A DNA stretch of 9,106 bases. It comes from a virus. Taxonomy: Duplodnaviria; Heunggongvirae; Uroviricota; Caudoviricetes. The notes below the pieces were generated by a model. It was not told the DNA's origin. It saw only the letters and a program-made list of their open reading frames with translations, and made no database searches. Shown here in pieces: positions 204-9,106 of the stretch; the stretch's first letter is position 1; each line of letters opens with the position of its first letter. The position numbers were made by a program, and so were the translations under genes. Location of the stretch: the IMG/VR virus record IMGVR_UViG_642979322_000006. One strand, written 5' to 3'.

Positions 204-230
204 CGAACAATATCGAACAACCACGAACAA
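204..230. repeat. Three 10-bp-phased copies of CGAACAA
   Basis: CGAACAA at 204-210, 214-220 and 224-230, a related TCAACAC at 234-240. Helical phasing suggests protein-binding sites; function unknown. Confidence 0.7.
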
Positions 231-5948: not shown

Positions 5949-6134
5949 TTACTCCTCATCCTGAATACATGTCACTGTGTGGATAATTACGCCGGATAAA
6001 CCGGCTTTAGCTGATTTGTTAATTACTGTGCTGATTGCAGCCTGGACGTTTTCGGCCTTCACGTTCTGCGTGATGCCAACGGTATAGCCGCGCTTGTTAA
6101 CAGCACGGGAAAAAACGCGGAAGGTTTTAAGCAC
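5949..6134 (-). CDS. Hypothetical protein (61 aa), GTG start
   Basis: ORF from track; start codon is GTG (plus 6132-6134 CAC), no internal Met. Overlaps the upstream ORF by 8 nt. Coding status uncertain. Confidence 0.4.
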   Translation of the reverse strand: MLKTFRVFSRAVNKRGYTVGITQNVKAENVQAAISTVINKSAKAGLSGVIIHTVTCIQDEE

Positions 6135-6330
6135 GGCACACCCCCTGACGAATACGGGCCGCGAATACCATCACGCAGCCAACTGGGGATTGCTGGCGTG
6201 CTTCCTGTTCGCTGGTGGCCTCGATGGTAATCACGCGCGGCTGTGCCGTGCTCAGGGCGATAAAACGCCAGATGTATTTATTCAGGTTGTGCGAGTCCCG
6301 CCCTTGCGGGTGTGTGGTATGATTTAACAT
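6127..6330 (-). CDS. Hypothetical protein (67 aa), first gene of the replication-side operon
   Basis: Internal ATG at 6330 of the track's 219-aa frame, with GAGGT 5 nt upstream. The longer frame is rejected because it would cross the divergent control region and the plus-strand RHH gene. Confidence 0.4.
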   Translation of the reverse strand: MLNHTTHPQGRDSHNLNKYIWRFIALSTAQPRVITIEATSEQEARQQSPVGCVMVFAARIRQGVCRA

Positions 6331-6430
6331 AGCTACCTCGATACTGTTGCTATCGTTGGTTGTTAGACGCCCTGCGAGTGTTCCACCACTGCGGGGCTTC
6401 GCTGTATTTAATGGTTGCGTATCTTCAATA

Positions 6431-6475
6431 TGGTACGTACCATTGGGTTTCAGTTTATAATGGTGGTACGTACCA
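6431..6475. promoter_or_regulatory. Twin 12-bp perfect palindromes TGGTACGTACCA (putative operators) flanking a TATAAT -10
   Basis: Palindromes at 6431-6442 (extends to a 14-bp palindrome at 6430-6443) and 6464-6475, centres 33 bp apart. TATAAT at 6456-6461. The second palindrome abuts the ATG at 6476. Lies in the divergent region between the RHH-like gene and the replication operon. Confidence 0.55.
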
Positions 6476-6658
6476 ATGCAAGAAAAAAATGAGAAACCAA
6501 AATTTGATCGCTCTGGCAGCACAAAGAAAAACATCCGCTTCGAAGACACATTGTTGCAACAAATTAACGAAGTTGCTGGGCCTGGTAATTTCAGTTCATG
6601 GGTTAAAAATGCCTGTCGTGACAAGCTACGCAAAGAAGGCATAGAACCAAAAGGCTGA
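6476..6658 (+). CDS. Small ribbon-helix-helix-like DNA-binding protein (60 aa), possibly YlcI/DUF3950-like
   Basis: ATG 6476 with GGTGG 9 nt upstream. Motif NIRFEDTLLQQINEVAGPGNFSSWVKNACRDKL fits a strand-helix-helix pattern and resembles small prophage regulators from memory. The only convincing plus-strand gene in the window. Confidence 0.55.
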   Translation: MQEKNEKPKFDRSGSTKKNIRFEDTLLQQINEVAGPGNFSSWVKNACRDKLRKEGIEPKG

Positions 6659-6749
6659 TAGTCCACCAGCAAGCCAGCACACTGAGCACATTGCCCACCA
6701 GACAGCAAATCGCTATGATGTTCGGGCTTATGTTTAGTGTTTTCCCATT

Positions 6750-6777
6750 GGCGACCGCCACAGGTCGCCTTTGTTTT
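6750..6777 (+). terminator. Rho-independent terminator (plus strand)
   Basis: 7-bp GC-rich stem GGCGACC / GGTCGCC with 6-nt loop, followed by TTTGTTTT; about 95 bp downstream of the RHH gene stop, in the convergent gap before alpA. Confidence 0.55.
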
Positions 6778-6796
6778 ATGTGTCATATGCTCCCCT

Positions 6797-7021
6797 TTAC
6801 ACTGCCTTACCTGAATTAATGCGATCCCGGCTTTTAACCCATTCCATAACCTCGGACAGCAGCCACCCTACAGAACGACCGCCCAGATTAAGACGTGACG
6901 GAAAGCGCCCTTTTTTCTCCAGTTCGTAGCGTGTAGTGCGGCACACTCCTGTTAACTTACGGCATTCATCCTCACGGATTACGCGATCTGATAGTGATTG
7001 AAATTGTGTATTTTGATTCAT
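6797..7021 (-). CDS. alpA: AlpA-family prophage transcriptional regulator (HTH, excisionase-like)
   Basis: 74-aa ORF. Motif RKLTGVCRTTRYELEKKGRFPSRLNLGGRSVGWLLSEVMEWVKSR matches the AlpA (Phage_AlpA) signature. Position downstream of int is typical. Confidence 0.88.
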   Translation of the reverse strand: MNQNTQFQSLSDRVIREDECRKLTGVCRTTRYELEKKGRFPSRLNLGGRSVGWLLSEVMEWVKSRDRINSGKAV

Positions 7022-7056
7022 AAAAAAACGTCCTCGAACGTTGCCGAACGAGGACG
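7022..7056 (-). terminator. Intrinsic terminator-like hairpin plus U7 tract abutting the alpA start codon
   Basis: 8-bp stem CGTCCTCG (7029-7036) / CGAGGACG (7049-7056) with 12-nt loop. On the minus strand it is followed by UUUUUUU (7028-7022), then the alpA AUG. The 3' arm contains the only SD-like GAGG for alpA. Confidence 0.55.
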
Positions 7057-7083
7057 ATTCTAGGCGGTAGTAAAACGCCGTTT

Positions 7084-7116
7084 GTGTGATATCACACTAC
7101 CAGCACGTGATATCAC
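7084..7116. promoter_or_regulatory. Twin palindromes GTGATATCAC (putative operator pair) upstream of alpA
   Basis: 14-bp perfect palindrome GTGTGATATCACAC at 7084-7097 and 10-bp palindrome GTGATATCAC at 7107-7116, centres 21 bp apart. The second overlaps the stop codon of the 257-aa ORF. Confidence 0.45.
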
Positions 7117-7886
7117 TTTTTACGTTTTTGTTGAGATTCACGCCCCAAATACTTTTGCCATGTCTGCCAATGTGTTTTTGGAAATTCTATCCCTCTGGAT
7201 GCAGCTATAGAATCAATTAAATCTGCTATTTTAGGTAATGATTCCGTGTCCAGGTCTACATCACCCATTTCTGGAATAAGTTTAATTAAAGAGTAAATAA
7301 CCTCATTCCTTTTTGACGATGCTTTTGGGCTATCTTCTGTTATCTTCGGGAAGTCTCCCGTATTTTTTATATTATCTAAATCACTAGCCATCACACACAA
7401 ATAGTTAACATCAAATTCATAACCACCCTTACAAAAAACATACATGAGATTATCATCACCATACTTATTCGTAAGATGAGAACATTTTATATATTGTCTC
7501 ATGCTAAATTCGACATCAGCAAAAACATATGCCGGAGTATAATAAAACCCTGATAAGCTGCTAACATAATAACATTTGATAGAATTCCCTACAGGACCAA
7601 TAATGGCACTATCTAAAAATTCAGTGTCACCAGTTAAACCAACTGTAAAATTACTTCCAAAAACAGCAGATTCATCATTGAAAGGATATTTTATTAATTC
7701 TTCCTCATTACAACCATTGATAAAATGACATAATGAAAAATTGAATTTTTTAGCATCAATTTTTGGTATATATACAGAAATATTAAGAGCACCTATATAT
7801 GCGTAATGATAAAGATCTTTTATTGCACAGCCTAACTTTTCTGCCGCTTCAGGTAACGGATAATAGAGTCTTTTAGGTAATTTCAT
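7113..7886 (-). CDS. Orphan hypothetical protein (257 aa), AT-rich cargo gene between int and alpA
   Basis: ORF from track. ATG 7886 overlaps the int stop as ATGA; AAGGTGG 4 nt upstream. Visibly lower GC than flanking genes. Rich in Y/F/N/K/C, acidic helical C-terminal region, no motif I can assign. Confidence 0.75.
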   Translation of the reverse strand: MKLPKRLYYPLPEAAEKLGCAIKDLYHYAYIGALNISVYIPKIDAKKFNFSLCHFINGCNEEELIKYPFNDESAVFGSNFTVGLTGDTEFLDSAIIGPVGNSIKCYYVSSLSGFYYTPAYVFADVEFSMRQYIKCSHLTNKYGDDNLMYVFCKGGYEFDVNYLCVMASDLDNIKNTGDFPKITEDSPKASSKRNEVIYSLIKLIPEMGDVDLDTESLPKIADLIDSIAASRGIEFPKTHWQTWQKYLGRESQQKRKK

Positions 7887-9106
7887 TTGGCCACCTTCAG
7901 CATAACAATATTTTCATGATTTCCAGCCAGCACATCGAGACGCTCAACCCATAGATTAAGAGCGTCACGTTTTGCATCAAGATAACGGGAGTGATTATAG
8001 ACTCGTTGCATTCCTGGCAACTGGTGCGCGGTAAGCTGCTCCACAACGTGCGGTTCCACGCCTAAATCGTTCAGCATCGTTGTAAACGTGTGCCGGATGT
8101 CGTGCAACGTCCAGGGGGCTTGATTAATGCGTCTGTGTGCCGTTCTTCCGTACTCTGATACGGATGATTGCCCTTTCAGTTCTCCGAGCAATAATCCCGT
8201 GTGCCTGTTCTGCTCCACCAGCTTCATGACAAACGGCAAGATCGCTTCCGGTATTGGCCTGAATATTGCTACCTTCGTTTTGCTGTGTTCTTTCGGCACG
8301 GTCCAGAGCATTTCTTTAAAATCCCATTCCTGGACCTCAGAGCGTCTTAGCTCAGTGGTACGACATCCGAAGACAATCAGGAGGCGAATCAGGGCGCTGT
8401 AGTACGGTGGGTAAATTTTTTCATCAAGGGCGCGTAGTAATTCCCCAAGCTCCTTGTTTGTTAGTACGCGCTCGCTTATTTCTGCTTTTTTCCCAACATC
8501 ACCGACAACCATATCATCAAGAACGTTGCTGATTGCGTATCGTCGTTTTCGGCAGTACTTAAGCGCCTGTTTGCATACCTGTAGCAAAAATCCGGCTGAT
8601 ACCGGATTACGCTTAGCAAGCTGGTCAAAACAGGCCAGCCAGTGGCGTAGCTCGCATTTTTCCAGTGGCATAGCGCCAATCTGGCTAATTATGTGTTTAT
8701 TGATCCGGCTTTTCAGTGATTCGTAGTCAGTGCGCTTTTCCTTTGCGTACGATTCAAGCCAGTAAGTGAGCGCTTCCTTAACCGTCACGGGGGCTAACGC
8801 GTCCTGTACAGCATGATTAAGTTCATAGCGCGGATTTTTCCCCTCAGCCAGCCAGGCGCGACACTGTGCCGCTTTTTCCCTGGCAGCTTTCAGGCTCAGA
8901 TCGGGATAATTGCCCAGCCTCAGACGTTCCGGTGATATCTGCCTACCAGTTCCGGCCCTGTAAGTGAAATACCAGGTTAACAGGCCATTGGTTGAATGCC
9001 TTACGCTAAGGTTGCCACCATCATTAAAAAAGGTGTTTTTTGTGGTTGGTGATCCGCTTAATTTTCGTAAAAGAGTGTCGCTAAGTCTATGAATTGCCCT
9101 GCTCAT
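7883..9106 (-). CDS. int: Tyrosine site-specific integrase (P4-type)
   Basis: 407-aa ORF. N-terminal region typical of P4-like integrases (FNDGGNLSVRHSTNGLLTWYFTYR...LGNYPDLSLKAAREKA). C-terminal catalytic region with HDIRHTF and RVYNHSRYLD (catalytic Tyr). ATG is at 9104-9106, so upstream signals are outside the window and the true start could lie beyond the edge. Confidence 0.92.
   Translation of the reverse strand: MSRAIHRLSDTLLRKLSGSPTTKNTFFNDGGNLSVRHSTNGLLTWYFTYRAGTGRQISPERLRLGNYPDLSLKAAREKAAQCRAWLAEGKNPRYELNHAVQDALAPVTVKEALTYWLESYAKEKRTDYESLKSRINKHIISQIGAMPLEKCELRHWLACFDQLAKRNPVSAGFLLQVCKQALKYCRKRRYAISNVLDDMVVGDVGKKAEISERVLTNKELGELLRALDEKIYPPYYSALIRLLIVFGCRTTELRRSEVQEWDFKEMLWTVPKEHSKTKVAIFRPIPEAILPFVMKLVEQNRHTGLLLGELKGQSSVSEYGRTAHRRINQAPWTLHDIRHTFTTMLNDLGVEPHVVEQLTAHQLPGMQRVYNHSRYLDAKRDALNLWVERLDVLAGNHENIVMLKVAK

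Follow-up and report, generated by a model that had tools for sequence, protein, structure and literature searches.

The int-X/alpA junction, within a 9,106-nucleotide stretch of viral DNA (IMG/VR record IMGVR_UViG_642979322_000006, Caudoviricetes; the whole stretch is hereafter called the window), appears to be a compact gate through which alpA is expressed only when its own promoter is active, a reading in which we place somewhat better than even confidence. The window is a phage satellite of the phage-inducible chromosomal island (PICI) type, and AlpA is the activator that launches Gram-negative PICIs and boosts its own promoter (PMC6092414, PMC11773190). Over-expression of AlpA leads to uncontrolled island replication and loss of viability, and alpA must therefore stay silent (PMC6092414) until its transcription is turned on by helper phages (PMC6092414, PMC11773190).

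In the proposed gate, a transcript of int and its neighbour X would terminate at a hairpin followed by a run of seven U residues, and any read-through RNA would carry a buried alpA ribosome site; both predictions are made because the 3' arm of a conserved hairpin is itself the Shine-Dalgarno (SD) sequence and the U tract follows it. The RNA of alpA's own promoter would start at G7049, without the anti-SD strand, and would be translatable. That promoter, which has no -35 element, would depend on a protein seated at twin GTGATATCAC dyads centred at about -40.5 and -61.5. The protein may be X, a winged-helix protein, acting as an activator or a repressor, and AlpA may occupy a GTTCG doublet in the hairpin, as at the attachment (att) arms, to give feedback that would most simply be negative. 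The parts of this arrangement (twin palindromes, TAGAAT hexamer, 8-bp hairpin with its SD, U7 and the alpA ATG) had been picked out in an initial annotation, and each is found base for base where it was placed. The insulator that the annotation proposed from them is supported by comparison with divergent relatives, at the level of sequence, in the covariation of the hairpin, the burial of the SD, the register of the hexamer and the spacing of the dyads. The features of the junction are as follows.

7883-9106, minus strand: int, tyrosine integrase of 407 amino acids, first gene of the int-X pair (Pfam Phage_integrase and Arm-DNA-bind_3)
7113-7886, minus strand: X, 257-amino-acid 'cargo' gene, candidate DNA-binding regulator
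7107-7116, no strand assigned: palindrome 1, GTGATATCAC, containing the X stop codon TGA (7115-7113); predicted centre about -61.5
7084-7097, no strand assigned: palindrome 2, GTGTGATATCACAC, a 14-bp dyad with the core GTGATATCAC at 7086-7095; predicted centre about -40.5
7057-7062, minus strand: TAGAAT, candidate -10 of the alpA promoter, with no -35 and no TG extension; best of 82 hexamers
7029-7056, minus strand: hairpin with an 8-bp stem, a 2x2 UU/UU internal loop, 2 bp and a GCAA loop; -17.0 kcal/mol
7056-7049, minus strand: 5' arm of the hairpin, CGTCCTCG
7049, minus strand: predicted transcription start G, last base of the 5' arm and 8 nucleotides past TAGAAT, placed from the position of the hexamer
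7035-7049, minus strand: doubled GTTCG, cGTTCGgcaacGTTCGa, at 7049-7045 and 7039-7035 with 10-bp spacing; predicted sites of AlpA/recombination directionality factor (RDF) type
7048-7037, minus strand: hairpin loop of 12 nucleotides, with two inner pairs around GCAA
7036-7029, minus strand: 3' arm of the hairpin, CGAGGACG
7031-7035, minus strand: SD sequence GAGGA, read from the sequence, within the 3' arm
7022-7028, minus strand: U7 tract, followed by the ATG at 7021
6797-7021, minus strand: alpA, 74 amino acids, ATG at 7021 (Pfam PF05930, 1.9e-16)

Relatives used for comparison

The alpA-based searches provided about 50 loci, and a search of genome contigs with AlpA yielded only four distant loci, of no help to the comparison. 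Searching with the X protein gave 19 clusters, and a hidden Markov model search gave 389 representatives. DNA was fetched around 13 X representatives, all 13 of which have the order int (405-407 amino acids where the contig extends that far), X, a gap of 53-96 nucleotides, and alpA. The same X C-terminal module as in the window is carried by 12 divergent lineages from E. coli, Salmonella, Klebsiella, Providencia and metagenomes, among which X identity falls to 29-33%. Other classes compared were the locus L073, which has an X variant with a different C-terminus; classes B and C, in which a DUF6387 protein takes the place of X; and class D, where int and alpA have no gene between them, a class that includes EcCICFT073 and EcCIMP1. 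The hairpin alignment contains 11 distinct sequences, and the hexamer register, the -10 score and the dyad-hexamer spacing were measured in 10 lineages. The version of the alpA upstream region described here is present in 66 of 5426 complete E. coli genomes and also occurs in Salmonella, Klebsiella and Providencia.

The hairpin and the alpA Shine-Dalgarno sequence

Six of the eight stem pairs are G-C and the U7 tract follows the stem directly, the combination expected of an intrinsic terminator. The folding check that the initial annotation had called for bears out a stable structure: the 131-nucleotide region folds at -40.2 kcal/mol (z = -4.9), and none of 200 shuffles folds as well. A consensus terminator scanner missed the hairpin because its loop exceeds 8 nucleotides; the loop is formally 12 nucleotides long, and its inner pairs leave a GCAA tetraloop. 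Nine of the 11 pairs have changed on both sides, and the observed covariation score is reached by 0 of 500 shuffles; 91.7% of cells are paired, versus 34-44% when the 3' partners are slid to other registers. About ten cells of the alignment are G-U, which on the opposite strand become A-C mismatches, and the structure therefore belongs to the alpA-sense RNA. Rfam holds no family that matches the hairpin at threshold, the best being ctRNA_p42d at 19.9 bits against a gathering threshold of 50.

GAGGA is the only SD-like sequence upstream of alpA. All lineages have a purine-rich SD within the 3' arm and the ATG 4-9 nucleotides past the stem. The claim that RNA arriving from upstream would have its SD paired is supported, the predicted probability of an unpaired SD being 0.00 in long transcripts. 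The companion claim, that RNA starting just below TAGAAT would leave the SD free, also agrees with predicted folds, in which the SD of RNA from the predicted +1 is unpaired at 36-62% (0.36-0.62) in X lineages, about 20% in class B and 51% in class C.

Termination, which had been proposed together with SD pairing, does not stand as a conserved property. A T5-T8 tract is shared by the lineages from E. coli and Salmonella and by L069, which is metagenomic; in others it is replaced by ATTTATCT, AATCATTT, ATATCCAT or AGTA, and four of the X lineages compared have no U tract. The hairpin is kept without a U tract in L060/L066, L062, L064, L068 and the C-terminal variant L073, and it follows that its constant function is occlusion of the SD and that termination is not the conserved one. 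In the window, the hairpin is predicted to be a strong intrinsic terminator in addition. Class D loci have no GC-rich hairpin at this position, a terminator-like structure being found about 120 nucleotides further upstream, and no co-oriented gene abuts alpA upstream; this absence of both hairpin and neighbour fits an insulating role. As a separate observation, the length of the T run varies among near-identical sequences (T6 in L009, T7 in the window, T8 in L067), which represents homopolymer slippage at the junction of terminator and leader.

The candidate alpA promoter

TAGAAT matches the -10 consensus at five of six positions and ranks first by -10 score among the 82 hexamers in the roughly 90 nucleotides upstream of the ATG. 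When the -10 weight-matrix score is averaged over lineages, it peaks only at the register of this hexamer (+2.5 bits, with a background near -3.5 and a next-best value of +0.55). The hexamers that abut the 5' arm across lineages are TAGAAT, TACAAT, CAGAAT, AATAAT, CAATAT, CAAAAT, TAGGCT, TAAGAT and AAAAAT, and all 10 lineages have an A at position 2 and a T at position 6 in the same register. Neither a -35 nor an extended -10 accompanies TAGAAT, the sequence at 17 bp being ACAAAC with no TG before the hexamer, and a consensus promoter scanner does not list the site because it has no -35. A promoter at this position, if it is one, would accordingly need an activator.

The G that closes the stem at the predicted start is invariant in all 11 sequences and lies 7 nucleotides past the hexamer in the other lineages. 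A leaderless alpA mRNA was rejected, there being no -10 at 7033-7028; since only 7 nucleotides separate the hairpin from the ATG, the alpA mRNA must begin inside the hairpin or upstream of it. A promoter of the MerR type, with a dyad between -35 and -10, was also rejected, as no suitable hexamers lie beside either dyad.

An mRNA that begins upstream is the basis of the strongest alternative, to which we give a distinctly smaller but real share of the probability. Here the junction would be a regulated attenuator: alpA mRNA would be int-X read-through, or would start at or upstream of the dyads, and a factor, which could be a helper-phage antiterminator, an RNA-binding protein or AlpA, would override both the terminator and the translational block. 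RNA initiated upstream must indeed meet the hairpin and U7, which abut the ATG; alpA is known to be induced by helper phages (PMC6092414); a -35 is lacking; and the hexamer may be seen instead as an A tract that pairs with the tail. The folds, however, contain no alternative antiterminator structure that competes with the hairpin, no nut- or boxB-like element was seen and Rfam gave no match, and a consensus promoter was found on this strand only within X, about 500 nucleotides upstream. Lineages without a U tract keep the hairpin, so that termination is not the regulated step in them, and the fixed distance of 27-28 nucleotides between dyad and hexamer, described below, is hard to explain without promoter geometry.

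The twin palindromes

The two palindromes of the window lie 21 bp apart, centre to centre, and two identical perfect 10-bp palindromes within 40 bp arose in 0 of 2000 Markov-simulated windows. Twin GTGATATCAC dyads are present in 12 of the 12 lineages with this X C-terminal module and at none of the roughly 50 alpA loci without X. Palindrome 1 spans the X stop codon in 11 of the 12, and in Klebsiella copy 1 has become GTGAATTCAC, with the dyad kept. The distance between dyad centres is 20-22 bp, or two helical turns, in all 12 lineages, and the centre of the proximal dyad lies 27-28 nucleotides from the hexamer in all 10 lineages measured, while the bases between and after the dyads are unconserved. 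The pair is thus symmetric, repeated in helical phase and conserved where its flanks diverge. The predicted positions near -40.5 and -61.5 are those commonly taken by a class II activator together with a class I one, and they would also be suited to blocking polymerase.

Rather than acting as DNA, the palindromes could pair with each other as RNA, closing the int-X message with a 3'-terminal stem-loop of 10-13 bp that serves as a stabiliser or an RNase III site. The copies do pair in the minimum-energy folds of most lineages and the spacer between them varies as a loop would, but we regard this function as unlikely. A stem needs complementarity only between the copies, yet each copy is a perfect dyad in its own right; the centre spacing is held at 20-22 bp and the distance to the hexamer is fixed. 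In Klebsiella, GTGAATTCAC and copy 2 (GTGATATCCC or GTGATATCTA) are predicted to form only about 4-5 bp, and the retention of a dyad that pairs so poorly with its partner argues for recognition of DNA by a dimer.

Several known types of element were considered at this site and rejected. CRP half-sites TGTGA/TCACA are present with a spacer of 2 bp, not 6; the P2/P4 Ogr/Delta site TGT-N12-ACA is absent; and a mini open reading frame between the dyads (GTG-CTG-GTA-GTG-TGA) has no SD and is not conserved. Separately, the region 2740-2860 of L073, in which the X variant ends 53 nucleotides before alpA and the hairpin is kept, has no GTGATATCAC; an inverted repeat, GGAAATAC-N15-GTATTTCC, is found inside the coding-region end of this X variant.

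GTTCG repeats in the hairpin and the att arms

The doubled GTTCG of the hairpin loop, which the initial annotation did not note, belongs to a motif, GAAC-N6-GAAC, that is found three times in the window where 0.27 would be expected; the two other copies fall in an att arm.

204-228, plus strand: far att arm, CGAAC in three copies spaced by 10 bp; motif shared with the hairpin loop

Matching arrays of three and two repeats lie just beyond int in the fetched locus L001 (11471-11569), and similar arrays flank int in every lineage. The repeats are thus short and direct, spaced by about 10 bp and shared with the att arms, as in RDF arrays. The motif covaries between arm and hairpin: in Klebsiella the arms have GTTCA and the hairpin TGAACA, and in E. 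coli both arms and hairpin have GTTCG. Within the hairpin, the repeat is found in either orientation, giving a UU/UU or an AA/AA internal loop, and it is never turned into a perfect stem. It is very improbable that the inverted repeat works as DNA only, as a platform for AlpA or Int through the GTTCG doublet with RNA pairing incidental: although the loop motif is the att-arm motif and covaries with the arms, and a UU/UU or AA/AA mismatch in every lineage is expected of a direct repeat and not of a stem, the outer stem drifts freely in sequence with pairing kept and G-U pairs used, which would be mismatches in a duplex symmetry, and the SD is always in the 3' arm.

In prophage KplE1, PintS is repressed by the excisionase TorI, whose binding sites next to this integrase promoter are GTTCG-type pentamers, three of which are spaced by 10 bp (PMC2951348). 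Compared with the present AlpA family, TorI gives an hhalign probability of 75% (E 2.5e-5) and fails the PF05930 threshold. From these likenesses we infer that AlpA, as an excisionase, would bind both the att arms and the hairpin doublet, the latter at +1 to +15 of its own promoter, where the simplest outcome would be negative feedback. The comparisons refine the proposed insulator, which would have SD occlusion as its core and termination as an add-on, in a hairpin dual-coded with excisionase-type repeats.

Other repeats were seen in the same regions. Both island ends (85-235, and 11425-11600 of L001) contain a doubled 8-mer of the AACTACACC type (opposite strand, GGTGTAGT) whose copies are spaced by 11 bp; it differs from lineage to lineage and is probably the arm site of the integrase. 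The CGAAC arrays, with their 10-bp spacing, adjoin these 8-mers, and the two ends share a core around ATAACTATCAT. In EcCICFT073 (L072, 14160-14260), a GAACAA/ACAAC run with 10-bp spacing starts right after the int stop codon, about 300 nucleotides upstream of alpA, and is a candidate AlpA site for the autoactivation reported in that island.

Candidate binders of the palindromes

The palindromes had been proposed as operators for a dimeric regulator, with AlpA, a ribbon-helix-helix (RHH)-like protein and helper-phage regulators as possible binders. Conserved dyads at fixed spacing fit the first part of that proposal; AlpA and the RHH-like protein are unlikely binders, and a helper-phage regulator is possible. 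The recognition helix of AlpA, RTTRY, is identical in loci with and without dyads, for which reason AlpA was rejected, and the integrase family is likewise common to dyad-bearing and dyad-free loci. The opposite-strand gene for the RHH-like/YlcI protein is missing from several X lineages. These observations on the AlpA helix, the shared integrase family and the absences of the YlcI-like gene argue against the other proteins and leave X as the leading candidate. X is annotated everywhere as a hypothetical 'cargo' protein; its N-terminal domain resembles Xis/MerR winged helices, and it is probably a regulator. The DUF6387 'cargo' proteins of other classes were rejected as relatives of X (hhalign probability 0.9%), and the upstream AT-palindromes of the DUF6387 classes have no fixed spacing.

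Although E. coli X variants (P0002-P0006 and P0011, compared with 7113-7310 of the window) have an overall identity of only 42-66%, their last 66 residues are 100% identical, which points to recombination inside X that would move the C-terminus, the dyads and the alpA region as one block.

Evidence against the proposed gate

Several observations weigh against the gate as outlined or against the parts assigned to its proteins. At the promoter, most lineages have the last two bases of the A-rich hexamer paired to the tail (pairs 8-38 and 9-37), and part of the conservation of the hexamer could be structural rather than promoter-related; some hexamers are also weak, CAATAT ranking 26th of 82 and TAGGCT matching at three of six positions. 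In EcCICFT073, AlpA is reported to regulate itself positively (PMC6092414), an effect for which sites at +1 to +15 would give no explanation. With respect to X, its C-terminal domain gave no match to a DNA-binding fold, physical linkage confounds the co-occurrence of X with the dyads, which adjoin the 3' end of the gene, and the L073 variant of X, with the same N-terminal helix and another C-terminus, has no dyads. Because of this linkage, the block-wise recombination of the C-terminus and the dyad-free L073, the chance that X is the binder of the twin dyads appears about even on the comparative data.

A broader proposal, which we put forward tentatively and consider less likely than not, is that X is the missing helper-responsive regulator of a subfamily of Gram-negative PICIs, seated on the twin GTGATATCAC operators and sensing a helper product through its fast-evolving middle domain. 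If this were true, X would decide whether the master activator is made, and would provide a Stl-like or activator-type switch, none of which is known in these islands.

The island and its other genes

A stretch 100% identical to the window is present in E. coli O157:H7 M1300706002, between clpS and cspD. The element has the features of a Gram-negative PICI, with co-oriented int, alpA and primase genes, packaging genes, no tail or lysis genes, and flanking att repeats; the att core and the arm repeats are present at both island ends. The genes int and X form one overlapping pair (overlap of 4 nucleotides), and about 55 nucleotides separate the X stop codon from the hairpin. After alpA, the minus strand continues with an Icd-like gene, DUF4222, a D5-type primase, a small terminase and capsid genes.

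A 219-amino-acid open reading frame at 6127-6786 on the minus strand, overlapping the alpA stop codon, is unlikely to be genuine over its full length. Within it, the RefSeq call is limited to 6127-6534 (Icd-like), and about 260 nucleotides after alpA are therefore non-coding on the minus strand; the Icd-like part matches a PHROG annotated as 'transcriptional repressor' (9.5e-56). A clean plus-strand terminator lies at 6750-6769 (GGCGACC...GGTCGCC, then a T run), 3' of the YlcI-like gene and 28 nucleotides short of the alpA stop codon, so that transcription of that gene, which converges on alpA, would end just before alpA. A second pair of identical perfect palindromes, GGTACGTACC, at 6432-6441 and 6465-6474 (33 bp apart), flanks a perfect TATAAT on the plus strand just 5' of the YlcI/DUF3950-like gene, whose ATG is at 6476. 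The pair resembles a further set of operators in a divergent control region, and among 78 fetched loci it occurs in L001 and L053 only. The island ends about 500 nucleotides past the capsid gene, at the att core near position 100. With a small terminase and one capsid protein as its only packaging content (1-1700 of the window; 2300-3960 of L001), it has the appearance of a short or decayed relative of the capsid-forming PICIs, for example EcCIEDL933.

Comparison with known systems

In its logic, the proposed insulation resembles the shielding of insertion sequences (IS) from external transcription. Davis, Simons and Kleckner reportedly described 'fold-back inhibition' for IS10 and IS50 in 1985. 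In IS200, a terminator hairpin and a second hairpin that occludes the ribosome-binding site act against impinging transcription (PMC3196728). As in these elements, incoming RNA would carry a strand that pairs with the ribosome site, RNA from the gene's own promoter would start inside or beyond that strand and be translated, and the guarded gene is harmful if expressed at the wrong time. The alpA junction differs in that one hairpin would be both terminator and mask of the ribosome-binding site, the guarded gene is the master regulator of a satellite and not a transposase, the promoter appears to be activator-dependent with twin operators, and the loop doubles as a putative protein-binding repeat.

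The attL/PintS region of KplE1 (CPS-53), with TorI and IntS, likewise has tandem GTTCG-type pentamers at 10-bp spacing in blocks of two and three (PMC2951348). Its pentamers are bound by a small winged-helix RDF and serve both recombination and promoter control (PMC2951348), whereas binding at alpA is predicted. TorI has its sites within attL and ahead of the integrase promoter's -35; the doublet described here lies 2 kb from att, in the leader hairpin of alpA, and TorI is only a distant relative of this AlpA.

Autoregulation is a property of the Vis protein of P4. In this satellite, the late promoter PLL, which is helper-activated and has no -35, has the alpA homologue vis as its first gene, followed by eta/kil, and downstream expression is governed by termination and translational coupling (PMC10111431), both of which recall the alpA junction. 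P4 promoters, however, use TGT-N12-ACA near -55 for Ogr/Delta, which is absent here, and P4 has no int-X operon abutting vis.

If X represses, the closest parallel in logic would be Stl of the Staphylococcus aureus pathogenicity islands, an island DNA-binding protein with a rapidly diverging sensor that holds the master switch until a helper protein arrives (PMC6092414, PMC9638917). There is no relation in sequence or fold between X and Stl, X is co-transcribed with int and not divergent, and with no -35 in the promoter, operators at -40/-61 would suit activation no less than repression. The AlpA of Pseudomonas aeruginosa, a Q-like antiterminator, resembles the present case in its name and in having a terminator between promoter and regulated genes (PMC7969949, PMC9371919), but it is a larger protein of eight helices, with helix-turn-helix residues 128-142, and binds GGGACG between -35 and -10. 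Its antitermination was rejected as a model, as it is a different protein that shares only the name, and it does not serve as evidence that the 74-amino-acid AlpA antiterminates.

Significance

In the searchable PICI literature there is no mention of a terminator, hairpin or palindromes before alpA, and its promoter is described only as fragments of several hundred bases. The present analysis resolves one widespread alpA control region into an insulating hairpin, a probable embedded promoter, an operator pair tied to the uncharacterised X family and excisionase-type repeats. It offers a handle on how helper phages wake Gram-negative PICIs, in the form of parts that can be individually mutated or footprinted, and it shows how a mobile element can set a dangerous regulator directly downstream of a gene pair that is presumably transcribed in quiescence.

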